A stretch of DNA of 32,000 nt from Candidatus Thalassarchaeaceae archaeon (lineage in GTDB: Archaea; Thermoplasmatota; Poseidoniia; Poseidoniales; Thalassarchaeaceae), in contig JBJLBP010000001.1 of NCBI GenBank assembly GCA_045568075.1, positions 1,170,001-1,202,000 on the forward strand, in the 5' to 3' direction. The notes beneath the pieces were generated by a model. The model made no database searches. It worked only from the letters and a program-made list of their open reading frames with translations, and was not told where the DNA came from. The position numbers and the translations under genes are program-made. This document shows positions 7 through 24,241 of this stretch, piece after piece (positions within the stretch are counted from its first letter, which is position 1; every line of letters starts with the position of its first letter).

Positions 7-2061
7 GTGACGACTACACGTCCCGGTATCGAGAGGATATTCTCTTGGTCGGCTCTCGATGAAAAGTCGAGGGTTGCTATTCTCGTCACCATTTTTCTTG
101 TCGTATCGATTGCTCCCGCTGTCGGTCAGAGTATCGAGACTGGATGGCAAGTCGTCGATTCAGGTACTGATGCTGATCTGAACGCGGCAGTGACTCATGG
201 CGAGTCTGTTTGGGCCTTCGGAGATTCAGGAACGGTTCTACTTAGTGAGGATGGAGGGGTGTTGTGGGAGACTCAGACATCTCTAGGAGATTCCGACCTA
301 ATTGCCGCAGATTCATTCGAAGATTCGATGGCAGTTCTTGCCTCTGATGGTTTGGTCTATCTTATGGTAGGGCTGAATGCCGATTGGCAGACTCTTGATT
401 CTAGTCGTACGGACATGAGAAGTCTGGCAGTGACTGGGAGCGAATCGCTGGTGCTAGTTGGAGATTCAGGCGTCATTCTCGAATATTCAACTGGAACCTG
501 GACTGAGCGCACCAGTGTTTTCGACAAAGATCTGAATGATGTTTCTTTCCGTGACGATTTGAATGGATTTGCCGTCGGAGATGAGGGGATGATTCTCGCA
601 ACAACCGATGGCGGTTTGTCATGGGATTACCGTGAAACCCCATCCGGAGCAGAGGGTTCTGCCCTAGTCTCCGTTGAATACTTCAATCCATACCGAATGT
701 TTGCTGTCAGTGATTCGGGACAGATTCTCTATTCCACTTCTGTCGGTGGTTACGAGTGGAATCTAAGGGAAATTGAATCAGAGGAATACAATACGTCTCT
801 GGGAGTATCACTTAGCTCTCTAAATGTGGTCTCATCATCGAAGATTCTCTTCACAGGAGAAGATGGATTCCTCGGTTTGAGTCTTGATCAAGGACTCAAT
901 GTTGAGGATAACATTCTGCCGGAAGGCGTGAGCACTTCATTCAATGATCACGCCATGTTCGATTACCTAGTCGGAATCGTTGTTGGAGATGGGGGTGTGA
1001 TTCTCTATACCGAATCCGCTGGTGAGAACGACAACGTGGGATTCGAGATTCCGGATTACAATAACTTCGGCGAATTCGTTGAATACGCCGATGATATGCT
1101 ACTGGGTGGGTTCATCGCCACTGTGAAGGTAGTCATCTTCGGAATTCTGTTCGGTTTCTTCATAGGAGTTATTCTGGCGATGATGAAGACCGCTCCAACC
1201 TCTTTCAAGAATCTCTTCGAAGGCGTTCAATTACCCATTGTCAAAGGCATAGGAGGAGTTCTCTCTGTTACTTCGGTGGTGCTCATTTACACGGGAGGCA
1301 GTAGATTCGGAGACCTCGGTCTTGAGGGATTGGAGTACATCTTCACACCAGTCGGTGACCCAGAAGGTTTCGCAATGTTTGCACTCGGAATTGGTTTGTT
1401 GGCCTTGGGAATTCAATTCAGTCTTGCTGATTTGAAACTCTCTGGACCTCTATTCAAGGTGCGCCCACTAAACACTCTCGCGACGATCTACACCGATTTC
1501 TTCAGGAATACTCCTTTGATTGTCCAATTCTTCTTCATCCACTTTGGCTTGAGTTTGGGGATGAGGTTGCAGCAAATCTTCGAGGGCTCATTCGGAGATG
1601 CTGGTGTTGACGGCCTCGACTACTTCTTCTATGGAGATCGAACTTTCTTGAGTGCAATTTTCACACTCGGACTCAACTCTGGCGCATACCAGTGTGAGAC
1701 AATCCGAGGGGCAATTGCAGCCATTCCAAGCGGCCAGATGGAAGCTGGAAGAAGTATAGGATTGACATATCTTGGAACAATGCAATTGGTGATTATGCCA
1801 CAGGCAATTCGAATCTGTATTCCACCTATTGGGAATGAAATGGTCAATCTAGTGTTGAATTCGTCTCTAGCGATGGTCATCGGATATTCTGAACTCTCCC
1901 GACAAGGTAGGCTGATGGTAGCGACCACCTTCCAGATTTTCTCAGCATGGGGCTTGGTGATGATATCCTACTTTGTCGTGACTTGGACTCTAGCGATGCT
2001 GTTGAGGCGTCTTGAGGACTGGTCACGAATACCAGGTTTAGGAATTTCAGGAGGTTCGTGA
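7..2061 (+). CDS. Fusion protein: N-terminal signal-anchor, extracytoplasmic 7-bladed BNR/Asp-box (Ycf48-like) beta-propeller, and polar amino-acid ABC transporter permease (HisM/GlnP type)
   Basis: 684-aa ORF starting at GTG 7, with an in-frame TGA at 1-3 that suggests coupling to an upstream gene. TM segment VAILVTIFLVVSIAPAV. Seven blade motifs of the form (G/S)D.G.(I/V)L at residues 71, 112, 151, 190, 234, 283 and 326. Asp-box-like SEDGGVLWE and TTDGGLSWD. The C-terminal half has FRNTPLIVQFFFIHFG and the EAA loop EAGRSIGLTYLGTMQLVIMPQAIRICIPPIGNE, typical of amino-acid permeases. The stop abuts the ATPase start. Confidence 0.8.
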   Translation: MTTTRPGIERIFSWSALDEKSRVAILVTIFLVVSIAPAVGQSIETGWQVVDSGTDADLNAAVTHGESVWAFGDSGTVLLSEDGGVLWETQTSLGDSDLIAADSFEDSMAVLASDGLVYLMVGLNADWQTLDSSRTDMRSLAVTGSESLVLVGDSGVILEYSTGTWTERTSVFDKDLNDVSFRDDLNGFAVGDEGMILATTDGGLSWDYRETPSGAEGSALVSVEYFNPYRMFAVSDSGQILYSTSVGGYEWNLREIESEEYNTSLGVSLSSLNVVSSSKILFTGEDGFLGLSLDQGLNVEDNILPEGVSTSFNDHAMFDYLVGIVVGDGGVILYTESAGENDNVGFEIPDYNNFGEFVEYADDMLLGGFIATVKVVIFGILFGFFIGVILAMMKTAPTSFKNLFEGVQLPIVKGIGGVLSVTSVVLIYTGGSRFGDLGLEGLEYIFTPVGDPEGFAMFALGIGLLALGIQFSLADLKLSGPLFKVRPLNTLATIYTDFFRNTPLIVQFFFIHFGLSLGMRLQQIFEGSFGDAGVDGLDYFFYGDRTFLSAIFTLGLNSGAYQCETIRGAIAAIPSGQMEAGRSIGLTYLGTMQLVIMPQAIRICIPPIGNEMVNLVLNSSLAMVIGYSELSRQGRLMVATTFQIFSAWGLVMISYFVVTWTLAMLLRRLEDWSRIPGLGISGGS
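2049..2055 (+). promoter_or_regulatory. Shine-Dalgarno site (AGGAGGT) for the ABC ATPase gene
   Basis: AGGAGGT lies 7 nt upstream of ATG 2062, inside the 3' end of the permease gene. Confidence 0.55.
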
Positions 2062-9593: not shown

Positions 9594-11606
9594 ATGACCG
9601 CCGAGGCAGCCGATTCATCGCTGAGATACTTCGCCCATGGCGAGGTGCGAGACTCTCAAGCTGAGATGGTCGAAGATGGCTTTGAGGCGCTTCTATCCGA
9701 AGGGTTTCTGATGGCCTCAGCACCAACCGGTATTGGAAAGACGGCTGCGGCTCTAGCCAGTGCAATCTCTGTTCAGCGTTCCTCTGCCGACAACATCCGA
9801 ATCCTATTCCTTACCGGGAGGCAATCTCAGCATCGCATCGTTGTCGAAACGGCGAAACAGATCAATCAGCGTATGGAGCAGAACGAGCCCCTATTGCGAG
9901 TTGTCGATTTGATTGGTCGAGAGGGGATGTGTGAAAATGTCGACAGAATCAGCGGTCGGTGTGATTGTGAAGAAGAAATCGACTCCTCAATGAGAGAGGA
10001 ATTACGCGGCAATATCCGATCACAGATGTGGCGCGCACCGATGCATGTTGACGACATGATTCGCGCCAGTCGAAAAATTCAGCTCTGTCCATGGGCAACG
10101 GCGCGCGAGGCAGCCAAGAATTGCGACATTCTAGTCTGTGATTACAATCACGTCTTCATCGACAGTGTCAGAGAAGCATCCCTACCCACTATGGGAATCG
10201 AATTAGAGAATGTTATCCTAATAGTCGATGAGGCCCACAACCTCCCAGATAGAATACGTAATGGGATGGAGCGTCGCATCATCTCGAAGACATTTCGCGA
10301 TGCTCGATTCGAAGTTCAGGAGCATCTTGAGAAAGAGATAGAGAGAGCTGCTGCTAAGAATGAAGAAATCGATTTGGATGAGATGGAATGGGCTGAGAGG
10401 TCTCTCAAGCGTCTACAATCTGAGATGCCTCGCTGGTTCTCTGCTCGTGAGAAGCAATTAGCCCGCTCCAAGGATGATGACATGAGAATCGAGACAAAGG
10501 AAGTCTTGCAGGAAATGGAAGAAATACTCAACGAATCTCTTGATGAAACTCCCAGTGCAAGACATACCACTCTCAAACGATTAGTCACTCAACTGTATGT
10601 AGTTCGTGTCGATCTCGATGAGGATGATGATGATGAGAAGGAGACAAGTTGCGAGCGACTCGGCTCTTTCATCTCGACCTGCGGGCAGTATGAGGAATCG
10701 CCGGCTCTTGTTCTCGTCTTCGATAAATTGCTCGACGAGCCTCGAGTGCGATCTTTTCTACTCGACCCAGGAGTGGTCGCAGAAGCTCTGTTCAAAGCAT
10801 CTCGTGGTGCTATTTTGATGTCAGGAACTCTCTCTCCTCCAGAGATGTATCGAGACCTTCTGAGACTTCCTGAGGAACGGGGGGTATTAGCCAAGGAATA
10901 CGATTCACCATTCCTTTCTGAGCGGCGACCAGTACTCATCGCCCAGAATACAACCTCGCGCTATACCGAACGTGGTGAGGGGAATACGAACAATATTCGC
11001 GATCATATCATCGAAGTGATTCGAAACACACCAGGACACGTCGCTCTCTTCGCGCAGAGTTATGCTATGCTCGATACCGTTCTTGACGATTATCGATGGG
11101 TCCCTTGGGGTGTACGTGTAGAGAAGGAGACGGCTCGAATGTCAAAGCGTCAGGTTGGAAATTTCGTTGAAAATCTGTATCGGAAGCGACGTACAAATGA
11201 TCGGGTTCTACTTTGTGGAGTTCTCTCCGGAAAACTTGCAGAAGGTGTCGATTATCCCGAAAATATCCTCGACGCCGTAATCTGCATCGGTCTACCAGTT
11301 CCGCCGCCTAGCGCACGTCAGAAGGCCTTGACCGATTATTGTGAGGATAGATTCGGGTCTCATGCTGCTCGTCGCTATTCAAGCCATCAACCAGCGGTGA
11401 ACAGCGTTCTGCAAGCGATTGGTAGACCAATCCGAAAGGCCGAGGATAGAGCCCTAGTAGTAATCCTCGAGAAGAGGATGAGAGAGAGGCCGTATCGCTT
11501 CTGCCTCCCATCAAGCCTACAGATAATGAAATCACAAGATTCAGACCGAACCGCTCGGGTGGCCAAACGCTTCTTCGAACGGTTCCCAGAACCTGCGATT
11601 GAGTGA
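9594..11606 (+). CDS. xpd: XPD/Rad3-family Fe-S DNA helicase (DEAD_2 / Helicase_C_2)
   Basis: Walker A SAPTGIGKT and DEAH box IVDEAHNL. Cys cluster C113, C123, C125 and C165 lies between motifs I and II. Also ILVCDYNHVF and the C-terminal GKLAEGVDYP and QAIGRPIR. Confidence 0.9.
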   Translation: MTAEAADSSLRYFAHGEVRDSQAEMVEDGFEALLSEGFLMASAPTGIGKTAAALASAISVQRSSADNIRILFLTGRQSQHRIVVETAKQINQRMEQNEPLLRVVDLIGREGMCENVDRISGRCDCEEEIDSSMREELRGNIRSQMWRAPMHVDDMIRASRKIQLCPWATAREAAKNCDILVCDYNHVFIDSVREASLPTMGIELENVILIVDEAHNLPDRIRNGMERRIISKTFRDARFEVQEHLEKEIERAAAKNEEIDLDEMEWAERSLKRLQSEMPRWFSAREKQLARSKDDDMRIETKEVLQEMEEILNESLDETPSARHTTLKRLVTQLYVVRVDLDEDDDDEKETSCERLGSFISTCGQYEESPALVLVFDKLLDEPRVRSFLLDPGVVAEALFKASRGAILMSGTLSPPEMYRDLLRLPEERGVLAKEYDSPFLSERRPVLIAQNTTSRYTERGEGNTNNIRDHIIEVIRNTPGHVALFAQSYAMLDTVLDDYRWVPWGVRVEKETARMSKRQVGNFVENLYRKRRTNDRVLLCGVLSGKLAEGVDYPENILDAVICIGLPVPPPSARQKALTDYCEDRFGSHAARRYSSHQPAVNSVLQAIGRPIRKAEDRALVVILEKRMRERPYRFCLPSSLQIMKSQDSDRTARVAKRFFERFPEPAIE

Positions 11607-11657
11607 TTAGTAGTCAATGGATTCATCCGAGACGGTTTGTTGGAGGGGACGAGAGCA

Positions 11658-12119
11658 ATGTGGGAAAGAGTCGATATCGAGGGCATCGAGAACTTGAGAG
11701 TGCCATCATCAGAGGGTACTGAACATGGATTAGATGTGAGTGCTGAATCGATGCACCAACTCTTCCTAGCCGACTTACCACACCTTGATTCGGTAAGACG
11801 CAATCACGGAAATGTCGTGGAAATGGTATCTGGGAGCGTCGAGAGTTCGATGACGGCGGCTCGTTCGTTTGAGACTCCGAATATTTCGTTCGATGAACTC
11901 GATGAGAAATCTGCCCGAGCCGGGTTCGACATCACTCTAGAGACCGACGCTCTCACAGATTTGATGGTCAGTACGAGCATCAACGATGGACGAAGATTGG
12001 TTCGCGTTATCGCTCCAGAGCGATTTGGCGGCTTGGTTCACACCCTCTCAATGCCACCTGCATTGGCCATCGATACGGCAGTGCTAGATGGAGAAATCCT
12101 TCGGTTAAAATTCGATTGA
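11658..12119 (+). CDS. Hypothetical protein; the C-terminal half may have an Hsp20/alpha-crystallin-like fold
   Basis: GGAGG lies 11 nt upstream of ATG 11658. The C-terminal pattern FDITLETDALTDLMVSTSINDGRRLVRVIA...HTLSMPPALAIDTAVLDGEILRLKF resembles the ACD strand pattern. The match is weak and judged by eye only. Confidence 0.45.
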   Translation: MWERVDIEGIENLRVPSSEGTEHGLDVSAESMHQLFLADLPHLDSVRRNHGNVVEMVSGSVESSMTAARSFETPNISFDELDEKSARAGFDITLETDALTDLMVSTSINDGRRLVRVIAPERFGGLVHTLSMPPALAIDTAVLDGEILRLKFD

Positions 12120-12150: not shown

Positions 12151-15100
12151 TCACGCCGCTGCTTCAGCCAAATCGTAGGAATCTCTCTCTGGAACTTCCT
12201 GCAAATCATCAATCTCTTGAAGAACCATGGAGAGAGCATGCTGTGCATTTTGTCGGTGACCATCACCCAGCCGGTGAGAAGAGTATCTTGCTTCCTCGAA
12301 AATTCTATCGAGAGCAACAAGAGCCTGCTCACTAATCGGTAGGGCCTTACGAATAGCCATCTCGAACTCCCTGACGGTCTCGAAGTCCCTTCGCAGGAAT
12401 CCGTGTCGCATCAGAATGTTGCAGAGGCTCTCATAGCAATTGAAGATGGCTTCACGGATTTCATCACCGGCAGCAAGGAGTTCCGCAGTATAACTGAAGA
12501 TTCCTGCCAACTCATCCATTGCAACTTGCCGGCGCTTCCTCAATGAGAGAGCCAGTCCAGCTACGGTGCCGAGTATGATTGCAGCACCGATCAAGGCGAT
12601 GATTTGCCAGAATGTTAACAATGGAGCCGGGTCTTCGTAAGTCATCTGGATTCCTCCATGTTCATTGGCTAACCAGAATCGGTCAGCCGGACTGATCAAT
12701 TGAGAATCCGTCTGGAAAATGAGCGATAGTTCACCCCATCGAGATGTCTTGTAGAATGATGGTTGATCACTAATTACGAATTCGTAATCCATGATTCCAT
12801 TAGCATCTGTAAGCTTCACATTCTGGAAGTGGATCATAGAGCTGTTGACCAGTCGGGCCACGATTGAGATACCCTCCACAGGAAGACCTGTGTCAGTCGC
12901 TGTTACGGTAACGGTTCCGTTGATTCTGCGCTGCTCTTCCTTGATGTGTTGACTATCTGGACTAAAGGTGAATGTAACCGGAACTCGGATATTCACGATG
13001 TGTTCAATTTCAGCGGCGTTAAGATATCGATCGGCATCGGCGAGCGCAGCAAGAGATAGCGATAGCTCACCTGGTGGCATTGTTGATCGAGCAGGTGAGC
13101 GTAGGTCGAAATGCCCAGTCGAATCATCCCACATCACTGTCGAACTCTCAGCCGCACCATTCCAGACTAGAACAACATCCATCTCTTCGATGACATTGCC
13201 TTCACCTCCGACCTCGACAATTCGTCCGACAACTTCGATATTGTAAGCATCATTCGAGCGGATGATGATGTCGGTTTGCCAAAGCACCTCAATGATCACA
13301 TCCGCTCGCGCAAATACAGTCATGTTGTACTCTACAGGAAGATAGAACGTCTGTCCTTCGAAGGTGAATCGAATGTCGTGACCACCACGAGCAATTAGAT
13401 ATCCAATCGAGTGGTCGAACATGAAATTACCATCATTACCAGTAGTCATCCTGTGAATCTCTTCGCCATCGAGTGTGACAACAATCTCTCGTCCTACCAA
13501 ACCAGGAGCTCCGGGTGTGTCAGAATCGAATAGTCGCCCGCTGAAATTCCATTTCTCACCGCGCGTTACAGAGACATCGTCAACCTGAAGATTCATCCCT
13601 GTATGGTAAGCAATGGTGAGATTCCCGTCAACGCTTCCTGGGCGGTGGTAACCCTGTGCAGGTGCCGAGACGGTGATTGTGTGGAATCCAACATCTAGGA
13701 AGTCAGAGATTACCCAATTGTAAGCCCAATCACCATTCTCATCGGTGGTTGTTATTCCAATCAAAGTTCCATCGATGAATATCTCGATTGAATGGTTCGC
13801 GAGCCAACCTTGAGGCAAGTTGTCTCGAACGGTTCCTCGTAGCCTCATTTCATCGCCGACTGCATGGGCTGCAGGAGGCTCCAAGGAGACGATTGCCGGA
13901 CCGAATACGGTGAACACAGTCGTCGAATTCGATGGGAGGATGAACTCTTCTCCAGCGAATGTGATTTTGACCAGACGAGGACCGAGTTCCATATCAGGAG
14001 GTATCGGCACATAGATGCTGAAAGTGCCATTCGCAGTAACCTGTAATCCTGTGAGGAATTGGTTGTTCATCGTAACCTCAAGATACCTATCACCCAAAGT
14101 TCGTCCTGCTCCATCGGTAAGCATTCCCTCTATCAAGAGAAGTTCATTCCGATCCACTTCCCCTGGTGGGGTAGTCAGTACTACCTGTGAAGTCTGAGTG
14201 ACGTTGAATACTTGAGTTGTGCTTGACGGTAGGTAATACTCAGGATTTAGCGAATCGCCTTGACCCATCGGGTCGACCCAAGTGAAGCCTCCAAGGAATT
14301 TCGCGGTCACGGTGTGAGCGCCGTAATCAGAATCCAGTGGGAGATTGTAGGTGACTGACCAAATCCCATCGGAAGCGTTCGAACGTGTTGTGTATGTAGA
14401 TCCAACATCGACACCGTCTATCCAGATGTGTATGATGCCTCCAGCAACTAAGCCGCTGTCAGTAAGAGTTTGACCGTGCTCATCGAGCAGAGTTCCGGTG
14501 AATGTGATACTCTCTCCAGCAATCATCGAACCGGACATCTCTGTTATCTCCAGCACGGTTGGTGCCAGAACTATTACGCGAGTCCAGGTCAAATCTCCTT
14601 CAAGTCCTGTTGTGCCATTGATACCAGCGAATTCTGCCGTAATCAGCATCGGACCTTGAATTCTGAGTGAATCGACAGGTATCGTTAGTGACGCGCGGCC
14701 ATCAACATCAGTCGGTATCGTCTGCAGGTAGATGCCATCTACGAGAATATCGACATTCGCGTTACTGACAAGCTGCCCAGCGTTATCGATTAGCGAGATG
14801 TTGACGCTAACATCGTCGCCGCGAATAACTCGACGGTCAGGGTCTAGATCGGCTGGATCAACAATTGTAATCAGCGAATAACCACGACTGTCAAACAAGC
14901 CAGTTCCACTACTGGAACCGTAGTAGTTCACCGTTGGAGTATAACTCGCAGTTAGGTTGTGGGTTCCTCGTGGGAATGAGAGACCAAGAGTCACAATTGC
15001 GTCCCAAGTTCCATTTGGATTTACAGCTCCTCCAACTACTTGGAAGCCAGAGTCGGAGCCATCTATCTCGAAAGTCAGGAAGGCTACTATCGAGGAACCA

Positions 15101-18100
15101 GATCTATCCATGATACCTGTGCCGTTGCTCGACTGGAGAGTTCCACTGACATTGAACGACTCCCCTGCAACTGGATTATCAGTCACCTGAGATACATTGA
15201 GTACGGTTGGTGAACGAACGATAATCTGATTCATCACAGTGGTTGTCGAAAGCAATGTCGACGAGCCATTGAACATCAGGGTAATTCCGATTTGACCCAA
15301 TGGATGGTCATGAGGCACGTCGAATGAGAAATTCGCCATTCCATCTCCACCGGTCACGACTTCTCCTATCCACGTGTCATGGAATTTAGCCGCAACTGTC
15401 ATTCCACCCAATCGTTGATCGTTATCTGAATACTCAGTGAGGCGTGCTCCGAAGTTGACAGAAGAACCTCTATCCACAATGGTTTGGATAATCGGTGTTC
15501 TATCCATGAATCGCGTAACACCACGCACGAGAATCGAGGCGTTACCAGTGCCCGTAAGGTAGAACGGAGTAGTACCGTCAATCACGCTGACAACTACCGT
15601 CTTAGTGCCGCTAGAAATTCCATCGCCACGTGGATCGGTTGGTACGGATACAGTGAATGAACCGTTATTGGACGTAGTGTGGCTTGTAACCAGCGTCTCG
15701 CTCGTATCGTTTAGGAAGAAGACCTCGATTGCCATCGGTCCCTCAACGGATCTGTTAATGTCGAAGCCATCAAGAACGCGACCAGAGATTGTGAAGGCTT
15801 GTCCTGCAGTAACCTCTGCTGGAATTGAATCGATTGCAATCGAGCTGTCGACCTGAACTGTGAGATTGACGAAGGTCTCATTTCCAACCCATCGTCCTGC
15901 ATTTTCGACAGTCAGATTGTCGGTCAGATCATCAGGGGCATGGACTCTCAAATCGTAGAATCCAGGAGCGGTATTGGCGAGCAGAGTCGGATTAAACCTA
16001 GCAACTCCATCGACATCAGTCACCGTGCTATCGATAATTGTCTGATTCGCGCCACCCCAGTCGAGCCAAAGGTCGACATTGGCATCCGGAACTATTGAGT
16101 CGTCCGCCTTGTCAGTCACGGTGGCGTTGAGAATCAATGTTGTTCCCGCCACGACGATAATCGAGGAGGGTTCTGCCTCGACGACGAACTCGCTCTGTAC
16201 TCCAAGTGGGACACGAACAGAGTCGGTCACAGTAAAGTATGGTCCTGGAGGTGTTGCTCCGTTAGCGAAGTTGAGAACGAATCGCAACATGTAAACGGAC
16301 GACGGAAGATCTGCGGGTACTGTGAATGTGTAGTTGTATTCACCCGTAGTCTGATTTATCCATCCATCAGCCAATCGGATGATAATTGGAGGAGCAGGGC
16401 TCCCATCGGGACCGGGTGGCAAATCTGATGGTTGCTCGAGTTGAATCACAATAGATGAGTTATTACCGGTTATGGGAGTTAGATGAACAACATCTTGAGC
16501 AACTCCCGAGACCCAGTTTGTAGTTCCTCTCGGAGTCCAATCGGAGCCGAGGGTGACAGTGACATTTGCCCGTCCTTGAATACGAATCAGATCTTGCACT
16601 GTTGCTGGTCGGAGCCAAGTTGAGCCTGTGAAATTCATCTCCCAGGTGTAATCTCCGGCAAACATATTCCATTGTGGCATCCAAACCACCGTGTACCTAC
16701 CCGAGGAAGGATCCGTCGCATTCCACACCTGCGTGCCATTGAAATCAACCGTATACGAACCAGGGAAATCAGCTACAGAAGAGCCAGTGTGATCGTATAA
16801 TTGTACATCGATTGCGGCTTGATTTCCACGAGTGGTTGGATTCAGGATGTAATCGAATTGGACGTAAGATCGGATTCCATAAGTCGCAGGGAAATTCTCC
16901 TCATCGGCGGCGAAAAGGCCGTCTGCGGCATAAGTGAATTTTACTTCAATTTCGCCGGATGGCACCGTAACTGAAGATTCGTTGAATTCCCACGATAACG
17001 CGAATTGGCCGGGCGTCGAAGTCCAATTACTCTCATTTAGAGACCAAGTCGTTAGAGTAGTGTAGGGCCCGTTGGTTCCTGATCTGCGAACTTGGAAGGT
17101 CAGTGTGCCATTAAGTGACTCAGGTGCTGGTCCTCTACTTACTGCCGTCCCATTGATGAAGACGAGTTCGTTGATGTCAAGGATGCTGATGTTGGAATCA
17201 ATTCCCTCTAGGGTAACGGTGAGGTTCGGAGATGGTGTGATGTTGAAATTGAAGGAGGTTGTTGTTGGACGTAGATGATACTCTGGAATCGTGAGATTGT
17301 TATTGTCTTCTTGATGCCATCCAAGGAATGCGAGACTCGCATTGATTAATCCGAGAGGTTCACTCTCAGAAATTGGAACATTGAATTCGTAATAGCCACC
17401 TGAACCGACATCAGCGATAAGATTCACAGGTCCATCCTCGACTGTTGTATAGTTGAGAAGAACTTGGAGGGTATCGAGGAGAGCAGGATCAGTCTGTGGT
17501 GCATTGAACCATTCAAGCAAACCAGTAACGGTGGTATTCACCCCAGCGCCCAGCATAGGTTCAGTTGCTGGTTGAGGACTAGTAATCGAGAGATTGACAT
17601 CATCAGTGATGTTGATCAACCACGGGAATGAGATACCCTGTATGCCTACGTAACCCTGTGTGTGGGTTAGAACAACTAGAGACCCATATCCGGGTTTAAT
17701 CATCTCCGATGGGGCTCCATCGAATGAGAAGAAGCCACTTGCATTCGTTGTCACGGTGCCAATTAGGTGATTCGGAGTCGCAGCACCTCCAGGAACATTC
17801 GCCGTGTCATTCGAAGGAACCAGATAGAGATCGAGTGTTATTCCTTCGATAACGCTAGCATTACTTGAGAATTGAAGAGTACCATTCAGAGTTATGTTTC
17901 CAGAGGAGTAATCTCTCTCATAGGAGTCTGGTGACCACGTCTCATTGACGACCTCGACAACAGACATCTCAGGGCAAGCTTCGAATGGAACCCATCCGAG
18001 ATCTAGTTCACCTTGATTGGCATTGGTTTGGAGATGGACTTCAACCCACCATGAGAAGTCATGGCCATAGACTTGGAACCCATTGTCTACCCAAGTTCCT

Positions 18101-21090
18101 CCCGAGAATCCCGTGACCTTTCTAGTCGGCAAATCAAGTGCCCTGAGCAAAGCAGCGAATACGGTTGCGTACTCGTCACAATCACCCTCACGAACCTCCT
18201 CTAGAATCCACAAGGATGTGTCTGTCAGTAATTGTGTAGAAGCGGAGTCACTTCTATTCGAACCGGCGTGATTCCGTAAGAACGTCGTAGTGTTATTCCC
18301 ATTGATGAGGAATTGCTGAATCGCCACCACTTGATCCCAAGCTGAAGTCCATCCAGTCTCATTTACCACATCCCAGGCGATACGTGAGATATTCTCAGAC
18401 GACTCAATCTTTCCGAGATCCTTCGCATAGGAACTATTCTGGAATGCGGTAGTGTTGTCTCTAATGACATCGGTCATCGTAACCTGAGTCGCAGTAACAT
18501 AGAGATTGGTGACAGTCGAAGAATCGATGAGGACATCACGCGTGTAATTAGAGAAATTCATTCCCGCATCAACATCGATCCAATCTGTGTAATTGACCGC
18601 ATTGTAAGGCGCGATGAGTTCATCACCAGGGTAGAGAATCCCGTTATTTCGGTATTCTAACTGCCAACCATAGAGGGCCGAGTTATCCCAGAAGTCTTGG
18701 TCGGGGATCCCCTGCGTTGTTGACCAGCTAGGGTACATAGGTGTGTAACCGACTAGGCTAGTATTGACACCCCAAGAAACCCCCGTATACGCATCATAGG
18801 TATGCCATCGCCAGTAATGTGTGATGTTGTAATCAATGCCAGCAGATGTGTTCTCAGCGAAGAAGTACAACATATTCGTCTGAATATCATCCGACGGATC
18901 CCAGGGGTTCATTTGTGCATCCGCACAGTCATTATCCCAGAATGCAGGAGGACATTCGTCTCCATCCGGAATTCCACCACCATCGGTGTCGGGATCACGC
19001 CAATCTGTTCCGATCTCCTGCTCAATGGTGTCAGGTATTCCGTCTCCATCGCTATCCAACGGATTCATGTCGTCGTCTGGATTATTCTGTGGATTCGTAC
19101 CATCGAAATACTCCTGAAAGTCGGTTACTCCACCATTATCAGTGTCAGTATTATTCCACAGAGTAGTGTAGTTATCTTGTGTCATATTGCCTCCACCAAT
19201 GCCGAACATCAATGGACAGCCGGTATTATTCTCGAACCAATTGTTCAGACCATCGCCATCGAAATCAGCGAGATTGTTGCATGGTTCCATCGGGTCAGTT
19301 CCGTTGATTACTTCGTCGAGGTCGCTGACACTATCTCCATCAGAGTCAGTCATGTTAGGGAAGGAGATGAAACCCCAAGATCCTAGGGCTTCTTCCCAAT
19401 CAGCCAAGCCATCTCCGTCGCTATCCTTGTAATCGTCATCGCAATGGGCTTCATTGGCAGTTCCAAGAGCCGGGTCCCAGCACCATGAGCCATTCAAGAC
19501 AACGATGAATATCGCACTAGTCGGCATGTCATTATCCACACCTTTGAGCGTATCACCAAGGATTGACGAATAGGAAAACGGCATTCTGCTACCATTAGGT
19601 GACTCGAACCAAGCCATCGGTTCTCCATTCTGCCTCCAGTCGATTGGTGTGGGGTCCAATTTCGTAGTATTATTCACTGTCAGAGAGTTATCGGAGGGAT
19701 CCCAGACGACGATGTCTAGATACAATTCGTAAGTCGATTTACATGGGTCAGTTCCGTGGGCTGGAGTCAATTCGATGCCGTCATCGACACCTCCCCCATC
19801 TGTATCGGAATTATTCCATTGAGTACACGTCGCATTTTCTTCCCAATTTTGTATTCCGTCACCATCAAGGTCGCCAGCGTCCTCGATTCGCGTCGGATCG
19901 GTTTCATTGAGATCAACGATGCCATTGAAGTTCGTATCCTCCTCTCCATCATCGAATTGGTCGCCGTCAGTATTGTTGTTTCGCGGGTCGGAAGCCTGAG
20001 GCGGATTACCATAGGAACCGTTGACTTCGACGCCGTCTGGAATTCCATCTCCGTCGGTATCAATATGTGTCGGATCGGTCAGTAGTACCAAAGCCTCGTA
20101 AGAATCGTTCAGACCATCTCCATCGGTGTCGTTATTGTTAGGATCGGTGTAAGTTACTCCATCCACCTCGGCGGTGAATATCTGACATCCACCCGGTCCT
20201 ATATTCTGGACCGGATTACAAGGAGATTCAGTACTCGTCCTATTGTCAGGGCCAGGCCTCCAATATTGACGAGGTGGTTGGACCGAGCCATTACGAGTGC
20301 TCCATGCTGGATTGACATATTCGTAGAGATTCACCAATCCGTCGCCGTCAGGATCCCCACTTGTTCCATCATCTCCGGAATTCGATGTCGGGTCGAGATT
20401 GTTTGCAACCTCCCAACCGTCTGGCATTCCATCCCCATCGGTATCCCAGCCGTTCGGATCCTCGTCGGTTGAATTGTCGCCATCATCATCATCGGTAGCG
20501 CAATCGGCATCTCCATCAAAATCACCATCCCAATTGTCAACCAATCCATCATGGTCATCGTCGAAGTTATTGAAACAAAGATTGCCGACTGGATCTTCGT
20601 CAGCCCCATCAGAATTCAATCCTTGAATGAGTTGCATAGCACTCTCCTCATCCCAATTACTGACCGGAACCGTACCATTCCACCAGACGCCGTTATCCAA
20701 TTCGTTCGGTGTTGAGGCAGAATCCCAATTCGAAGGAATTCCGTATTGGTATTCATTCAGATTAGTCAGAGAGTCTCCATCCTGATCGCCTGTCGAGCCA
20801 TTGATTCCAGTCGCAGATAGAGGATCAAGTCCGTATTGCCACTCCCAGCCATCTGGAAGTCCATCGTTATCAGAATCCCAATCCTGCGGCTGAGTTCCGA
20901 TGTAATACTCTAGACCGTATGGCAATCCATCACCATCAGTATCTGTCGAACCCCTCACTTCCCAAGATGCAAATTCGATTGCGGAGTACGATGTTAACAA
21001 CATCAAGAGACTGAAGAGAATAGCTGAACGCTCCTTGCGTCGAGCGATTCGAGCATTATTTCCTCTCTCATCGACGTACAAGATGCACAC
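12151..21090 (-). CDS. Giant (2979-aa) type-I membrane surface protein: signal-anchor, about 19 thrombospondin-type-3-like Ca-binding motifs, transglutaminase-like core, 14 or more tandem Ig-like/CarboxypepD_reg-like domains, TM helix, DUF4129-like cytosolic tail
   Basis: Uninterrupted 8.9-kb ORF. DxDxDGxxDxxE motifs such as DTDGDGLPYGLE, DSDNDGLPDGWE and DTDGDGIPDGVE. TGase-like EGDCDEYATVFAALLRALDLPTRKVTGF...YGHDFSWWVEV...GWVPFEA. Repeated units of about 90-100 aa such as VDLWLDW...TVTDVDGVARF. TM FWQIIALIGAAIILGTVAGLALSL followed by RKRRQ. Tail LPISEQALVALDRIFEEARYSSHRL. The start is uncertain by a few codons (GTG 21090 or TTG 21081). Confidence 0.9.
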   Translation of the reverse strand: MCILYVDERGNNARIARRKERSAILFSLLMLLTSYSAIEFASWEVRGSTDTDGDGLPYGLEYYIGTQPQDWDSDNDGLPDGWEWQYGLDPLSATGINGSTGDQDGDSLTNLNEYQYGIPSNWDSASTPNELDNGVWWNGTVPVSNWDEESAMQLIQGLNSDGADEDPVGNLCFNNFDDDHDGLVDNWDGDFDGDADCATDDDDGDNSTDEDPNGWDTDGDGMPDGWEVANNLDPTSNSGDDGTSGDPDGDGLVNLYEYVNPAWSTRNGSVQPPRQYWRPGPDNRTSTESPCNPVQNIGPGGCQIFTAEVDGVTYTDPNNNDTDGDGLNDSYEALVLLTDPTHIDTDGDGIPDGVEVNGSYGNPPQASDPRNNNTDGDQFDDGEEDTNFNGIVDLNETDPTRIEDAGDLDGDGIQNWEENATCTQWNNSDTDGGGVDDGIELTPAHGTDPCKSTYELYLDIVVWDPSDNSLTVNNTTKLDPTPIDWRQNGEPMAWFESPNGSRMPFSYSSILGDTLKGVDNDMPTSAIFIVVLNGSWCWDPALGTANEAHCDDDYKDSDGDGLADWEEALGSWGFISFPNMTDSDGDSVSDLDEVINGTDPMEPCNNLADFDGDGLNNWFENNTGCPLMFGIGGGNMTQDNYTTLWNNTDTDNGGVTDFQEYFDGTNPQNNPDDDMNPLDSDGDGIPDTIEQEIGTDWRDPDTDGGGIPDGDECPPAFWDNDCADAQMNPWDPSDDIQTNMLYFFAENTSAGIDYNITHYWRWHTYDAYTGVSWGVNTSLVGYTPMYPSWSTTQGIPDQDFWDNSALYGWQLEYRNNGILYPGDELIAPYNAVNYTDWIDVDAGMNFSNYTRDVLIDSSTVTNLYVTATQVTMTDVIRDNTTAFQNSSYAKDLGKIESSENISRIAWDVVNETGWTSAWDQVVAIQQFLINGNNTTTFLRNHAGSNRSDSASTQLLTDTSLWILEEVREGDCDEYATVFAALLRALDLPTRKVTGFSGGTWVDNGFQVYGHDFSWWVEVHLQTNANQGELDLGWVPFEACPEMSVVEVVNETWSPDSYERDYSSGNITLNGTLQFSSNASVIEGITLDLYLVPSNDTANVPGGAATPNHLIGTVTTNASGFFSFDGAPSEMIKPGYGSLVVLTHTQGYVGIQGISFPWLINITDDVNLSITSPQPATEPMLGAGVNTTVTGLLEWFNAPQTDPALLDTLQVLLNYTTVEDGPVNLIADVGSGGYYEFNVPISESEPLGLINASLAFLGWHQEDNNNLTIPEYHLRPTTTSFNFNITPSPNLTVTLEGIDSNISILDINELVFINGTAVSRGPAPESLNGTLTFQVRRSGTNGPYTTLTTWSLNESNWTSTPGQFALSWEFNESSVTVPSGEIEVKFTYAADGLFAADEENFPATYGIRSYVQFDYILNPTTRGNQAAIDVQLYDHTGSSVADFPGSYTVDFNGTQVWNATDPSSGRYTVVWMPQWNMFAGDYTWEMNFTGSTWLRPATVQDLIRIQGRANVTVTLGSDWTPRGTTNWVSGVAQDVVHLTPITGNNSSIVIQLEQPSDLPPGPDGSPAPPIIIRLADGWINQTTGEYNYTFTVPADLPSSVYMLRFVLNFANGATPPGPYFTVTDSVRVPLGVQSEFVVEAEPSSIIVVAGTTLILNATVTDKADDSIVPDANVDLWLDWGGANQTIIDSTVTDVDGVARFNPTLLANTAPGFYDLRVHAPDDLTDNLTVENAGRWVGNETFVNLTVQVDSSIAIDSIPAEVTAGQAFTISGRVLDGFDINRSVEGPMAIEVFFLNDTSETLVTSHTTSNNGSFTVSVPTDPRGDGISSGTKTVVVSVIDGTTPFYLTGTGNASILVRGVTRFMDRTPIIQTIVDRGSSVNFGARLTEYSDNDQRLGGMTVAAKFHDTWIGEVVTGGDGMANFSFDVPHDHPLGQIGITLMFNGSSTLLSTTTVMNQIIVRSPTVLNVSQVTDNPVAGESFNVSGTLQSSNGTGIMDRSGSSIVAFLTFEIDGSDSGFQVVGGAVNPNGTWDAIVTLGLSFPRGTHNLTASYTPTVNYYGSSSGTGLFDSRGYSLITIVDPADLDPDRRVIRGDDVSVNISLIDNAGQLVSNANVDILVDGIYLQTIPTDVDGRASLTIPVDSLRIQGPMLITAEFAGINGTTGLEGDLTWTRVIVLAPTVLEITEMSGSMIAGESITFTGTLLDEHGQTLTDSGLVAGGIIHIWIDGVDVGSTYTTRSNASDGIWSVTYNLPLDSDYGAHTVTAKFLGGFTWVDPMGQGDSLNPEYYLPSSTTQVFNVTQTSQVVLTTPPGEVDRNELLLIEGMLTDGAGRTLGDRYLEVTMNNQFLTGLQVTANGTFSIYVPIPPDMELGPRLVKITFAGEEFILPSNSTTVFTVFGPAIVSLEPPAAHAVGDEMRLRGTVRDNLPQGWLANHSIEIFIDGTLIGITTTDENGDWAYNWVISDFLDVGFHTITVSAPAQGYHRPGSVDGNLTIAYHTGMNLQVDDVSVTRGEKWNFSGRLFDSDTPGAPGLVGREIVVTLDGEEIHRMTTGNDGNFMFDHSIGYLIARGGHDIRFTFEGQTFYLPVEYNMTVFARADVIIEVLWQTDIIIRSNDAYNIEVVGRIVEVGGEGNVIEEMDVVLVWNGAAESSTVMWDDSTGHFDLRSPARSTMPPGELSLSLAALADADRYLNAAEIEHIVNIRVPVTFTFSPDSQHIKEEQRRINGTVTVTATDTGLPVEGISIVARLVNSSMIHFQNVKLTDANGIMDYEFVISDQPSFYKTSRWGELSLIFQTDSQLISPADRFWLANEHGGIQMTYEDPAPLLTFWQIIALIGAAIILGTVAGLALSLRKRRQVAMDELAGIFSYTAELLAAGDEIREAIFNCYESLCNILMRHGFLRRDFETVREFEMAIRKALPISEQALVALDRIFEEARYSSHRLGDGHRQNAQHALSMVLQEIDDLQEVPERDSYDLAEAAA

Positions 21091-21165
21091 TCCCTACCGC
21101 CTACGGCGGTTCATACGGGTCTTAAGCGGAATGGAGCGCCGTTCGGACGTTGCTCAGGTGTACAC

Positions 21166-24108
21166 TCAGATGAGTTCGATGTCATCATCATCGTAAACCA
21201 TCTCATCTGGCTCTTCTTCCTCAGTCACGGGAGCAGGAATATCTTCGCCCATATCCTCTTCCTCATCCTCTTCGTCCTCATCTTTCATCGCATCAAGAAG
21301 CGCGAGGTGAGCTGCCCATTTCCTACGGTTCATCCTGCTCTGAATCCCTCCGAATACTAGCAGGATGGCAACTACCATGACGATGAGAGTCGAAGCCCGA
21401 GGGTTGGTAATTTCATTCACTAAACGATCGAAGATGGCATCAATCCCGACGACCAATGTGACCTTCTCCTCAGCGGTGAAATCCTCTGGCCAACTCTGAT
21501 CTGTATCGTGAGGCTCTGCAGTCACAGTAACTACTACCTGATCGCCGTTATTGGCTGTGGCTGGAACCGAGACTTCGAGGTGGAAAGTGACTTCTTCGAA
21601 AGCATCGAGTTCGATCAGTCGAGAGCCAGTTGGACCACCGATATCGACTGTCCATCCGGTGGCTCCGACAGCCTCAGCATCAAGGAGCACGATTAGAGGA
21701 CTGTTGCCTTTGTTGCGGACCTTGAGTTGAAAGTCGTAATCTTCGCCCGGTGCTAGCTTCCTATTCGAAGTGACTTGGACAATCTCAAGGTCCGGTTCGT
21801 CGGCATCGACTTCGAAGACCATCGGGAGATCGAAGTAACGTGGATTGGAATCTGAGGTCTCCTCAATTATTCGAAGATATACTGTGTGATTGCCGACGAC
21901 GACTTGATTGGTGAGAGTGACAACGACGAAGATTTCAGTATAATCTCCTGGCCCCAGAGATACCGTAGGCAGGGCTGAGCCGTTCTCATCGAGAATACGA
22001 TAATTCCACTGCCCATAGGCTGCGTTTCGGTCAGTATTCTCTGCGAGGCTGGCAGGATTTACGATCCGCCATTGTGAGGCTGATGCACCGCTGGTCATAC
22101 TATTGGTTATACGCGCGCGGAGGTTGACTTCTGGGTCGGAGAGTGATGAACATAGCGAGACCTGAATGTGACCCAGTGGCGTGCCATCACAGTCCTGCGA
22201 GACCTCTGCGCGGATTCCAAAGGTACGCTGAATCGTGAACTCAACTATAGTCCGCAGCGAGGCGTTTCCAGAACTAATAACCTCAAGCTCAATCATTCCG
22301 ATATCAGGGTCTTCTCGGTCAGCAGATGGTTTGACATTGAAGCGAAGAACCTGAGTTGAATGGCGTTCGAGAGGAGGTATATGGAATGTACCATCTCCGT
22401 CATTTTCGAGGATTCTCTCGCCAGTGTCATTATCGTAAATTTGGACGATGGCCTTTGAGCGTTTGAGGACGTCAACACGGAACGTATCTGTGTCAAATCC
22501 AGTATTGAAAATCTCAAGCAAGAAAGTGGTGAATTGATTGTCCTCGACATATCTAGGGATTGTCGAGTCAATGTCACCTGGACGGCTAGAGTTTGCGATT
22601 GGAATTTCGTGGTCCTCATCCCACACTGATACGTCAGGTGGTTGGAAAACTTCGAGCTTCTCCAAATCGAGAGAGAGCAGGTCTTGGTGAACCACAGTTT
22701 GCACTCCTTCGATGGTCGCTTCTGCAACCGCCCTGATCTCGATTCTGTCAGGAGCCCCTGTCAGATCATCTGGGGCGGTAATGGTTAGAATCGGATTGAG
22801 AATATCTCCGCCAGAATTCAGAGTGTAGCCTCCGGGGGAATCAAACTCCACCAACCAAGCGCTACCGAGATTGGTAAGTAACTCCAGTTCAACGGTCATA
22901 GATTTGGTGGAGTCTCCGCGGTGGACGAGTTGCAGCGGCACCGGAGTCGTCTCTCCAGGAGCCGCATACTCTACGGTTCGGTCCTCACGGTGATTGATTG
23001 CGACTCCCCATTGCTTCATCTCAACAGGATCGTGCTCGACGAGGAAGGCATTACCCTGCACGTCGGTGATTTCGAGTTCAACACTATACTCGCCAGATGG
23101 CAATCCGCTGGGATATGTCCACGTGTATGCACCAAATATCCCTTGACTAGTGTCGCGAATACCATCGTCGTCAGAAGAAACTTCGTGGTCAACGCGATAA
23201 TTACCATTGGGATCGCGCATCAAAAGGCGAACAGAATCCATGTCTTCACGCCCAAAGGCACTCTTGACATCGAAGGAGAATTGCATAGTTCGGTCCGACA
23301 GAACATCGTTTGGATACCATTCAAGTTCGGCACCATCTGCTAATTCAGCACCATCGCGTTGCAAGATGACTTCGCTATCGGCTATAGCATTGGATTCAAC
23401 TTCCAACTGAGAGTAACGATTGCTCTCTCCATCGATTTCATTCCATGCAATCTCAGCTTCACAACTGCTTCCGAAAGGACCACCGCTGCTCTCGCAACCG
23501 GTCATTTCTGCAGAAATCTCAATAGTAAATTCTTCTCCATCATCAACCTCGAAACCTTGCTCATCATCGTCGAGGATGACCTCAAAGAGTTCATGGTCAA
23601 AATTACATGAATTCGTGAGGCCGGGATTACATGCATCGGCCTCCCATGATTCGGAACCTACTGTGCCACCGTTGGCACTCACAGTAATGTCCCATGTGAC
23701 CTGTGAGTTACTCGGACCCTGTGCACGGAGGAAAAGTTGCACTGGAATGTAGAATTGACCTGAGGAAGAACCGTGCTTGGGGCGACCATTGATCATCAGC
23801 GTACTCATGAGGTCGCCGGTGCTGAATTCGATAGTCGAATCTAGGGCGCTCGCAGTCGATTGGCCACCAGATTCAGGAACACGTGTTGTGATGTGACCAT
23901 CACCTCCAGAGGAGGAGTTGGCTTCGGCCAAATAGAGAGTGTAGAGTTTGAGTTCAATTTCATCTGAGGCCTGCGATTTGGAAACATCGGCTAGAGTGTC
24001 TGTAGGGGCCGTAACCCCAGCCAGGGGGGCCGCCAACATGAGCAAGGCGAGAAACATCGCAGTTCGGGCGATACCGAGCCCGCGAATCGCCTTGCTGCTC
24101 GCAATCAT
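21166..24108 (-). CDS. 980-aa type-I membrane surface protein with a signal peptide, multiple beta-sandwich (NEW3/CARDB/COG1470-like) domains, a TM helix and a poly-acidic cytosolic tail
   Basis: Signal peptide RGLGIARTAMFLALLMLAAPLAGV. NEW3/CARDB-like LAPGEDYDFQLKVRNKGNSPLIVLLDAEAVGATGWTVDIGG...VTFHLEVSVPATANNGDQVVVTVTAEP. TM STLIVMVVAILLVFGGI followed by RMNRRKW. Tail DEDEEDEEEDMGED...DDDDIELI. The gene lies 75 nt upstream of the giant gene on the same strand. Confidence 0.85.
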   Translation of the reverse strand: MIASSKAIRGLGIARTAMFLALLMLAAPLAGVTAPTDTLADVSKSQASDEIELKLYTLYLAEANSSSGGDGHITTRVPESGGQSTASALDSTIEFSTGDLMSTLMINGRPKHGSSSGQFYIPVQLFLRAQGPSNSQVTWDITVSANGGTVGSESWEADACNPGLTNSCNFDHELFEVILDDDEQGFEVDDGEEFTIEISAEMTGCESSGGPFGSSCEAEIAWNEIDGESNRYSQLEVESNAIADSEVILQRDGAELADGAELEWYPNDVLSDRTMQFSFDVKSAFGREDMDSVRLLMRDPNGNYRVDHEVSSDDDGIRDTSQGIFGAYTWTYPSGLPSGEYSVELEITDVQGNAFLVEHDPVEMKQWGVAINHREDRTVEYAAPGETTPVPLQLVHRGDSTKSMTVELELLTNLGSAWLVEFDSPGGYTLNSGGDILNPILTITAPDDLTGAPDRIEIRAVAEATIEGVQTVVHQDLLSLDLEKLEVFQPPDVSVWDEDHEIPIANSSRPGDIDSTIPRYVEDNQFTTFLLEIFNTGFDTDTFRVDVLKRSKAIVQIYDNDTGERILENDGDGTFHIPPLERHSTQVLRFNVKPSADREDPDIGMIELEVISSGNASLRTIVEFTIQRTFGIRAEVSQDCDGTPLGHIQVSLCSSLSDPEVNLRARITNSMTSGASASQWRIVNPASLAENTDRNAAYGQWNYRILDENGSALPTVSLGPGDYTEIFVVVTLTNQVVVGNHTVYLRIIEETSDSNPRYFDLPMVFEVDADEPDLEIVQVTSNRKLAPGEDYDFQLKVRNKGNSPLIVLLDAEAVGATGWTVDIGGPTGSRLIELDAFEEVTFHLEVSVPATANNGDQVVVTVTAEPHDTDQSWPEDFTAEEKVTLVVGIDAIFDRLVNEITNPRASTLIVMVVAILLVFGGIQSRMNRRKWAAHLALLDAMKDEDEEDEEEDMGEDIPAPVTEEEEPDEMVYDDDDIELI

Positions 24109-24130: not shown

Positions 24131-24138
24131 TGTTAAAG
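24131..24138 (-). promoter_or_regulatory. Weak TATA-like element (CTTTAACA) about 27 nt upstream of ATG 24108; would imply a leaderless or near-leaderless transcript for the surface locus
   Basis: The minus strand reads CGCTTTAACACCCCGCTGAGAGCCGAAGGGCG-ATG. The call rests only on position and A/T content. Confidence 0.25.
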
Positions 24139-24241
24139 CGTTCGTGAGGTCCGAGCCACCAATGCATCGTTTTCACCACGCCCCCAAAAGGGGGCGTTGC
24201 GTGCCGCTCGTTTCAAGTCCAATGGCTTTGCCAGCAGACTT

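Follow-up and report, generated by a model that had tools for sequence, protein, structure and literature searches.

A conserved two-gene locus of Poseidoniales archaea encoding a giant TgpA-family derivative and a candidate beta-sandwich membrane partner

The DNA analyzed here (the window) is a stretch of 32,000 nucleotides (nt), positions 1,170,001 to 1,202,000 of contig JBJLBP010000001.1 (assembly GCA_045568075.1), from a genome of the Thalassarchaeaceae (MGIIb) in the order Poseidoniales, the Marine Group II archaea. It contains a locus of two adjacent genes, called A and B here, which fills 12 kb of a small genome (Table 1). The list of open reading frames (ORFs) confirmed the two co-oriented coding sequences reported in an earlier note made from the sequence; both are on the minus strand, with A upstream of B. 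The two genes are conserved at 26–98% identity in more than 90 loci and so are real genes; the names of their close relatives are Ca. Thalassarchaeum, Thalassarchaeaceae, Poseidoniaceae or Poseidoniales. The shared topology proposed for the products was borne out by hydropathy: each has a signal sequence, a large ectodomain, one C-terminal transmembrane helix, a basic stop, and a cytosolic tail. In B, the hydrophobic region of the signal spans residues 23–41, and a helix at approximately 2825–2848 is followed by RKRR and a tail of 128 amino acids (aa). In A, the helix (approximately 905–925) is followed by RMNRRK and an acidic tail of 55 aa.

Table 1. Positions of genes A and B and of the features assigned to them, in window coordinates (TG, transglutaminase; Ig, immunoglobulin)
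Feature	Position	Strand	Description and basis
Gene A	21166..24108	-	980 aa, ATG start, type-I membrane protein; ORF and translation
Gene B	12151..21090	-	2979 aa from GTG (~2976 from TTG), giant type-I membrane protein; ORF, translation, Pfam
TATA-like box of A	24131..24140	-	CGCTTTAACA, 23–32 nt upstream of A start; sequence, inferred promoter
A signal peptide region	24001..24108	-	residues 1–36; basic n-region and hydrophobic window 10–36
A juxtamembrane motif, transmembrane helix and RR	21334..21414	-	residues 899–925, E-I-x-N-P-R-A-x-T; 14-sequence alignment and hydropathy
A cytosolic acidic tail	21169..21333	-	residues 926–980, DIPAPV and C-terminal DDDDIELI motifs; conserved columns
Conserved element upstream of B	21119..21148	-	GTnnGAAC-N6-CCATT-N3-CTTA(A/T)GA; 18-locus alignment
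Spacer hairpin	21096..21110	-	ACCGCC-TAC-GGCGGT, 6-bp stem, 3-nt loop; sequence
Shine-Dalgarno-like motif and likely B start	21079..21094	-	GGGAGTG (21088–21094) and TTG (21079–21081); spacer alignment
B TSP3 Ca-binding repeat region	18931..20946	-	residues ~49–720, membrane-distal; TSP3_bac E 8e-11 and 5e-9 on segments
B TgpA-like module	17941..18837	-	residues 752–1050; Transglut_core, hhalign, Foldseek
B stalk of diverged Ig-like domains	12631..17940	-	residues ~1051–2820; Big_3_5, Big_7, CarboxypepD_reg and MG2 matches
B transmembrane helix	12547..12618	-	residues 2825–2848, then RKRR; hydropathy maximum 2.58
B cytosolic tail with DUF4129	12154..12537	-	residues 2852–2979; PF13559 E 1.5e-8, residues 2885–2953

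The larger protein, B, had been described as a combination of Ca-binding repeats, a transglutaminase (TG) fold, and a stalk of immunoglobulin (Ig)-like domains. Pfam searches recovered all three elements (TSP3_bac, Transglut_core, and Big_3_5/Big_7), and these domain calls held up both in profile hidden Markov model searches and, for the TG module, in structure searches with Foldseek. The N-terminal part carries 10 TSP3 motifs of the form DxDxDGxxDxxE. Comparison of B sequences from the two Poseidoniales families, Thalassarchaeaceae and Poseidoniaceae, gave identities of 61–76% for the TSP3 region (residues 100–400), 25–48% for the stalk, 17–40% for the TG module, and 55–83% for DUF4129 (residues 2861–2940). 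The TSP3 region is the best conserved part of the ectodomain, and DUF4129 is among the most constrained parts of the protein. A search of Protein Data Bank (PDB) sequences with the DUF4129 tail returned zero matches. The conservation of DUF4129 in B, together with the motifs of the A tail that are conserved in Poseidoniales, indicates that the tails are not junk. The length of B is 2,940–2,992 aa in both families, and no DNA tandem repeats were found within the gene. Judged from its sequence, the stalk is an array of old, diverged Ig-like domains and not of recent tandem copies, unlike the repeat-expanding bacterial adhesins.

The ectodomain of B is rich in N-X-S/T sequons, with 91 present against 32 expected. 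All of them precede the transmembrane helix and none lies beyond residue 2749, which fits an ectodomain that faces the outside. Across 57 homologues, the median ratio of observed to expected sequons is 2.24. Counted per 200 aa, sequons number 7–11 over residues 200–2000 and drop to 2–4 over the last 800 residues before the membrane. From this distribution, the base of the stalk looks as if it were shielded; A, which would reach a comparable height, has 6 sequons against 6.2 expected and so shows no enrichment.

Giant bacterial adhesins such as SiiE and the RTX proteins of the LapA/MpIBP type likewise consist of very long Ig-like arrays with a Ca-binding region and a ligand-binding part at the distal end. 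Foldseek matches of the B model include SiiE and the extender region of a large adhesion protein, and the Myxococcus TSP3 proteins CglD and MtsD are related to B through their TSP3 repeats by sub-threshold NCBIfam matches. In contrast to the RTX/SiiE adhesins, B is anchored by its own C-terminal transmembrane helix and cytosolic domain and not by type-1 secretion retention; it has no near-identical tandem repeats, its length is nearly fixed, and its gene has a housekeeping setting. No RTX model matched B in the Pfam scans.

The affiliation of B is given by its TG module. Transglut_core (PF01841) was detected above the gathering score, with expect values (E) of 4.9e-11 for the whole protein and 3.9e-12 for the segment, and is located between the signal peptide and the transmembrane helix. 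The best PDB sequence match of the region is 6G49, the periplasmic domain of Pseudomonas aeruginosa TgpA. A structure model of residues 735–1175 was built using database fragments as homologues and has core predicted local distance difference test (pLDDT) values mostly above 80; 6G49 and 6G4H were its top Foldseek matches, both at about E 1e-6 (6G49, E 1.1e-6 over 311 columns). An hhalign comparison with proteins of the TgpA_N, Transglut_core, and DUF4129 type gave a probability of 99.1% and E 6.6e-19 over 255 columns, beginning from a YLR..DRY..W motif. The homology covers the complete periplasmic domain of TgpA, reaching well upstream of the Pfam core, and the periplasmic part alone of the TgpA_N region aligns. 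TgpA_N itself (PF11992, five transmembrane helices) has no match in B, where there is a single N-terminal hydrophobic segment. The nearest database relatives of B outside Poseidoniales are bacterial proteins with TgpA_N, Transglut_core, and DUF4129, and the order of transmembrane helix and DUF4129 is the same in P0337–P0339. The shared plan of TG fold, transmembrane helix, and DUF4129, in combination with homology of the module, identifies B as a greatly enlarged derivative of the TgpA family.

The alignments further revealed that the canonical catalytic histidine is missing. Ser1013 occupies this position according to phmmer alignment to 6G49, MAFFT alignment with TgpA-type proteins, and hhalign. 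Among 57 homologues, Ser or Thr fills this position in 56 and Ala in one; His is absent from it in the database fragments as well, and the residues seen overall are S, T, A, or D (Ala and Asp in single sequences). The HAWVEV motif of TgpA-type proteins reads [ST]xW[VGA]EV in the B family, and none of the His residues in the TG core of B homologues is invariant. Because the three methods agree and the aligned residue is never His, the "putative catalytic" label given to this fold in the earlier note had to be withdrawn. The absence of the canonical His from every homologue means that B is most likely without transglutaminase or protease function; canonical activity of either kind is unlikely, and an annotation of B as a "transglutaminase" should not be taken to mean that it is an enzyme.

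The opposite possibility is an enzymatically active B, a transglutaminase or cysteine protease at the cell surface with envelope or particle proteins as its substrates for cross-linking or cleavage. It would accord with a TG fold in which Cys971 is invariant and has its canonical GxCxxF context, with the transglutaminase activity measured for the homologue TgpA (PMC3507681), and with the occurrence of Glu at the position of the catalytic Asp (Glu1037 in B) in His-bearing TgpA-type proteins as well. Set against this, the His position holds Ser, Thr, Ala, or Asp in all members and no His of the core is invariant. In addition, the Asp position varies among homologues (E, D, Q, or F), and no other part of B is as poorly conserved as the TG module. 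An enzymatic role is, on this evidence, quite improbable. A second cysteine, Cys1039 (motif ACP), is invariant and found in the B family alone, with Thr at this position in TgpA-type proteins; the Cys971/Cys1039 pair might form a structural disulfide or support unusual chemistry.

TgpA is a six-helix inner-membrane protein whose periplasmic TG domain has a conserved triad and measured transglutaminase activity, and it is encoded with MoxR and DUF58 genes (PMC3507681). The likeness of B to the TgpA type (P. aeruginosa PA2873) lies in the extracytoplasmic TG fold, aligned over ~255 columns, the transmembrane helix, and the cytosolic DUF4129; a physiological substrate is known for neither protein. 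B differs in having a signal peptide in place of the five-helix N-terminal membrane domain, in the addition of ~670 aa of TSP3 repeats before the TG module and ~1,770 aa of Ig-like domains behind it, and in the loss of the catalytic His and gain of Cys1039. Although B lacks three features of TgpA, namely its N-terminal domain, its triad, and its operon context, it is clearly derived from that family. The nearest parallel for the gene pair is the bifidobacterial PFNA cluster (pkb2-fn3-MoxR-duf58-tgm), in which the genes of a membrane-bound beta-sandwich adhesion protein and a membrane TgpA-like protein are neighbors (PMC6803598). The likeness to this cluster, and to the general MoxR-DUF58-transglutaminase arrangement, is that the gene of a beta-sandwich membrane protein adjoins that of a TgpA-like protein. 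Unlike the PFNA cluster, the window and the flanks of related loci contain no Ser/Thr kinase, MoxR ATPase, or DUF58 gene; A has no fn3 Pfam match, and its significant relatives are all archaeal; and the architecture of B departs from that of the bifidobacterial protein as it does from TgpA. With B recognizable as a TgpA derivative and similar proteins paired in the PFNA cluster, the earlier statement that no characterized system has this composition proved too strong.

The product of gene A is predicted to contain ~8 beta-sandwich domains. An AlphaFold model was all-beta, in agreement with the beta-sandwich nature ascribed to this protein earlier, although at weak confidence (pLDDT 57). Fold matches were generic and no family was assigned from them, and a PDB sequence search with the A family gave zero matches. 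Matches of the CARDB/NPCBM_assoc type in the region before the transmembrane helix were all sub-threshold in Pfam; NPCBM_assoc (PF10633) scored 22.4 bits in the A protein of the window against a cut-off of 24.4 bits, and PF10633 is recorded for a clade at 66% identity. Alignment of the family revealed four invariant Cys residues in the N-terminal domain, a juxtamembrane E-I-x-[ND]-P-x-x-x-T motif, and DLPEPV and terminal DDDDIEL motifs in the tail. Among the juxtamembrane columns, E899 and P903 are invariant, and T907 and R925 occur in at least 90% of the 14 sequences aligned. A motif resembling PEP-CTERM, [ND]-P-[ERD]-[PA]-x-T followed by a transmembrane helix and RR, is present at A residues 902–907 (21388–21405) and in homologues P0130 and P0131. 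One A homologue marginally passes the PEP_CTERM model (TIGR02595; 16.6 against 16 bits), and one member is named accordingly at NCBI. Sorting of A by a PEP-CTERM/archaeosortase system was nevertheless dropped as an explanation, since the marginal homologue is the single one and ~55 residues follow the basic cluster, a tail that a terminal sorting signal does not fit.

The A family is small, with 156 relatives among 1.84e9 representative proteins and ~13 full-length clusters at 50% identity, 950–990 aa in length. A word-index protein search with A, even as a profile, found relatives of at least 66% identity only, and the same search with B found fragments only. More distant relatives of A occur in other Thermoplasmatota (780–850 aa; phmmer E 2e-12 to 2e-5) and several of those that have been named are called "uncharacterized membrane protein" or "NEW3 domain-containing." These NEW3/COG1470-like proteins share with A a signal peptide, a beta-sandwich array, a common N-terminal domain, and probably an NPCBM_assoc/CARDB-like domain ahead of the C-terminal transmembrane helix. 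They differ in size (780–840 aa, compared with 950–990 aa for A) and in their tails, which have 3–8 residues (~30 in P0224) instead of the ~55 acidic residues of A; they also stand alone beside YjeF or other housekeeping genes, whereas A adjoins B. The acidic tail with its end motifs is present in 14 of the 14 aligned Poseidoniales A proteins and in none of the four closest relatives from other Thermoplasmatota, and the genomic contexts of A-like genes outside Poseidoniales (three of three) contain no TG or DUF4129 neighbor. By these sequence relationships, A belongs to an older family of beta-sandwich membrane proteins that extends across Thermoplasmatota and whose members are presumably part of the envelope. 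On one non-Poseidoniales Thermoplasmatota contig (L099, 7859–12436), a stand-alone A-like gene adjoins a gene for an XPD-type helicase, the family that also flanks B.

An envelope role raises the question of a surface layer (S-layer), and A and B might by analogy with SlaA/SlaB form a two-component coat of Poseidoniales, one protein providing the lattice and the other the spacer. Archaeal S-layer systems (the euryarchaeal S-layer glycoproteins and the SlaA/SlaB pair of Sulfolobales) resemble the pair in their signal peptides, large acidic ectodomains, and C-terminal membrane anchors, in sequon enrichment for B but not for A, and in the two-gene arrangement. The order-wide presence of the pair among housekeeping genes, the signal peptides and transmembrane anchors on both proteins, the strong sequon enrichment and nearly fixed length of B, and the wide distribution of A-like proteins in Thermoplasmatota would all suit a coat, and no S-layer protein is described for Poseidoniales in the literature searched. 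However, an S-layer would need neither the transmembrane anchors nor the cytosolic domains found on both proteins, A is not enriched in sequons, and no known lattice subunit resembles a TSP3/TgpA protein of 3,000 aa. Neither a known S-layer family nor a PGF-CTERM/archaeosortase signal was matched in the Pfam, NCBIfam, PDB sequence, and Foldseek searches. We give the S-layer explanation little credence. Literature searches on the DUF4129 and COG1470 families and on transglutaminases or S-layers of Poseidoniales turned up no description of A or B.

The sequences upstream of each gene contain candidate promoter elements. The box ahead of A takes the form (C/G)(G/C)TTTAACAC at the same distance in both Poseidoniales families, and the location of TTTAACAC 23–32 nt ahead of the ATG suggests that the A mRNA is leaderless or nearly so. 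Upstream of this box, a G/C hairpin (CGCCCCCTTTTGGGGGCG; 24179–24196, minus strand) was observed. Poseidoniaceae have a different hairpin upstream of A (CCCCCTCGTAGAGGGGG), followed by a T-run, which looks like the terminator of the upstream gene. The element upstream of B retains 15 invariant positions in 18 diverse loci from both families between flanks that are unconserved. It has one match in the window, against 0.01 expected, and no conserved RNA structure, and it also lies just ahead of the B homologues in loci L001–L096. It is probably a promoter, with CTTAAGA as a TATA-like part, joined to a regulator-binding site. A scan for bacterial promoters and terminators gave counts at chance level and is uninformative for an archaeal host. 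By these elements, A and B look separately promoted, with B specifically regulated.

The spacer between the genes had been given as 75 nt with a small hairpin. This length presupposes GTG 21090 as the start of B. Relatives have their ATG opposite TTG 21081, which is located 6 nt past the Shine-Dalgarno-like GGGAGTG, and a GGTGA-like Shine-Dalgarno motif stands 5–7 nt ahead of the B start in all clades; B therefore probably starts at this TTG, which gives ~2976 aa and a spacer of 84 nt. The hairpin exists as described and persists in Thalassarchaeaceae, where L014 shows one compensatory pair, but it is unremarkable: Poseidoniaceae lack it, and the predicted fold of the spacer is no more stable than that of shuffled sequence (z = -0.66). 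The alignment yields no consensus structure and Rfam matches a tRNA alone, and a regulatory role for the hairpin was rejected. In Poseidoniaceae, T-rich tracts occur between A and B.

The two genes are adjacent and co-oriented in every locus with sufficient contig extent, in both Poseidoniales families, so the pair does persist as neighbors in related genomes, as the synteny check suggested in the earlier note required. The sets examined comprise GTDB loci of Thalassarchaeaceae, the 66%-identity clade, and 80 metagenome loci (reference cluster named Poseidoniaceae); the query in the metagenome search was a six-sequence subset of the 14-sequence A alignment. Adjacency extends to the deepest A clade, at 26% identity, where extra genes lie upstream. 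A and B stay joined despite upstream insertions (L085, L088, L091, L092, and L097), and none of the loci that extend far enough separates them. The deepest A clade has another giant gene that ends ~10 kb upstream of A (8,132 aa in L098 and 3,533 aa as called in L097, both at 1–233). In the data examined, the pairing and the acidic tail of A appear confined to Poseidoniales, and this shared restriction is the best, if indirect, argument that A and B work together.

Collectively, these results are best explained, with a probability of about 0.5, by a core, non-enzymatic surface fiber or envelope pair in which B is an enlarged TgpA derivative and A is a plausible though putative physical partner. 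Both proteins would be exported and held by their C-terminal helices. B would form a heavily N-glycosylated, Ca-stiffened fiber of nearly fixed length that is structural or adhesive and not an enzyme; with ~17 domains of general Ig-domain dimensions, it would measure tens of nanometers if extended. The conserved TSP3/TG head may bind external ligands or other envelope components, and DUF4129 may hold B to a conserved cytoplasmic partner. A, through its acquired tail, could be that partner or a co-anchor of B.

Several observations weigh against this explanation. In the TG module, the invariance of Cys971 and Cys1039 shows continuing constraint on the former active site, where non-canonical chemistry may yet take place, and His758 in the N-terminal subdomain of the module is nearly invariant. 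The length of B is not strictly fixed, since it is ~3,370 aa, some 400 aa longer, in the deepest A clade. The fold search with A returned generic Ig/macroglobulin arrays only, with template-modeling scores of at most 0.17 from a poor model. MoxR and DUF58 genes, which usually accompany TgpA, were found neither among the window's ORFs over its full 32 kb nor within the 10 kb flanking related loci. Finally, the whole block (2-oxoacid dehydrogenase E1-LipA-short-chain dehydrogenase/reductase (SDR)-A-B-XPD) is syntenic in both families, and the adjacency of A and B could be plain inherited gene order; with the entire neighborhood syntenic and a promoter-like element for each gene, adjacency is weaker evidence of partnership than it seems.

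The last point leads to the reading in which A and B are functionally independent neighbors, A a general Thermoplasmatota envelope protein and B a separate adhesin, kept side by side by inherited gene order. Besides the conserved block, it draws on the conserved promoter-like element that each gene has of its own, the T-rich tracts separating the genes in Poseidoniaceae, and the A-like genes of other Thermoplasmatota that have no B-like neighbor. It does not readily account for an acidic tail that is universal among the aligned Poseidoniales A proteins and missing from their closest outside relatives, nor for the persistence of the pair where insertions have broken the block upstream with no locus found to separate them. 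We consider independence of the two proteins possible but on balance doubtful.

A further reading would make the pair a new kind of archaeal device that couples the cell surface to the cytoplasm and senses attachment, in which the TSP3/TG head captures a ligand and the state of the fiber is relayed across the membrane through DUF4129 and the Poseidoniales-specific acidic tail of A. Capture might involve a remodeled Cys971/Cys1039 site that has replaced the Cys-His-Asp triad. This version appears unlikely; if true, it would mean that the most abundant planktonic archaea possess a dedicated apparatus of this kind and would, for the first time, assign a mechanistic role to DUF4129 and to the TgpA family.

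Poseidoniales, an uncultured group, are reported as the archaea with the highest abundance in surface ocean waters, and their "widespread thrombospondin genes" have been taken as evidence of adhesion or particle attachment (Rinke et al., PMC6461757). B may be among these thrombospondin genes. The literature searched contained nothing on the composition of the Poseidoniales cell surface, and the A-B locus stands out here as the strongest candidate for a major surface structure of these organisms, by inferred function. B also supplies an archaeal relative with a very different ectodomain for the essential but poorly understood TgpA family and for the uncharacterized DUF4129, and its comparison with TgpA could reveal the role of the conserved core of TG fold, transmembrane helix, and DUF4129.

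The surroundings of the locus are a housekeeping region and not a variable island. Upstream of A are genes for tRNA-Leu, a FolB-like protein, an SDR, and lipoyl synthase, and a 2-oxoacid dehydrogenase operon. On the other side, past the end of B, lie a small ORF without a family match, an XPD-type helicase gene (9594–11606), and genes for a PPDK_N protein, glutamate dehydrogenase, and an ABC transporter. The small ORF (11637–12119, plus strand, 160 aa), which converges on the end of B, is 48–94% identical across Thalassarchaeaceae loci and was not detected in Poseidoniaceae loci. The PPDK_N gene (6588–9500, plus strand) encodes a 970-aa protein of unusual architecture, with a PPDK_N domain (phosphoenolpyruvate-utilizing, ATP-grasp) and weak matches to a response-regulator receiver and to DUF5752. 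At the far end of the window, a 684-aa ORF (7–2061, plus strand) combines a match to a BNR/YCF48-like beta-propeller with an ABC-transporter permease domain and is followed by an ABC ATPase gene (2062–2805).

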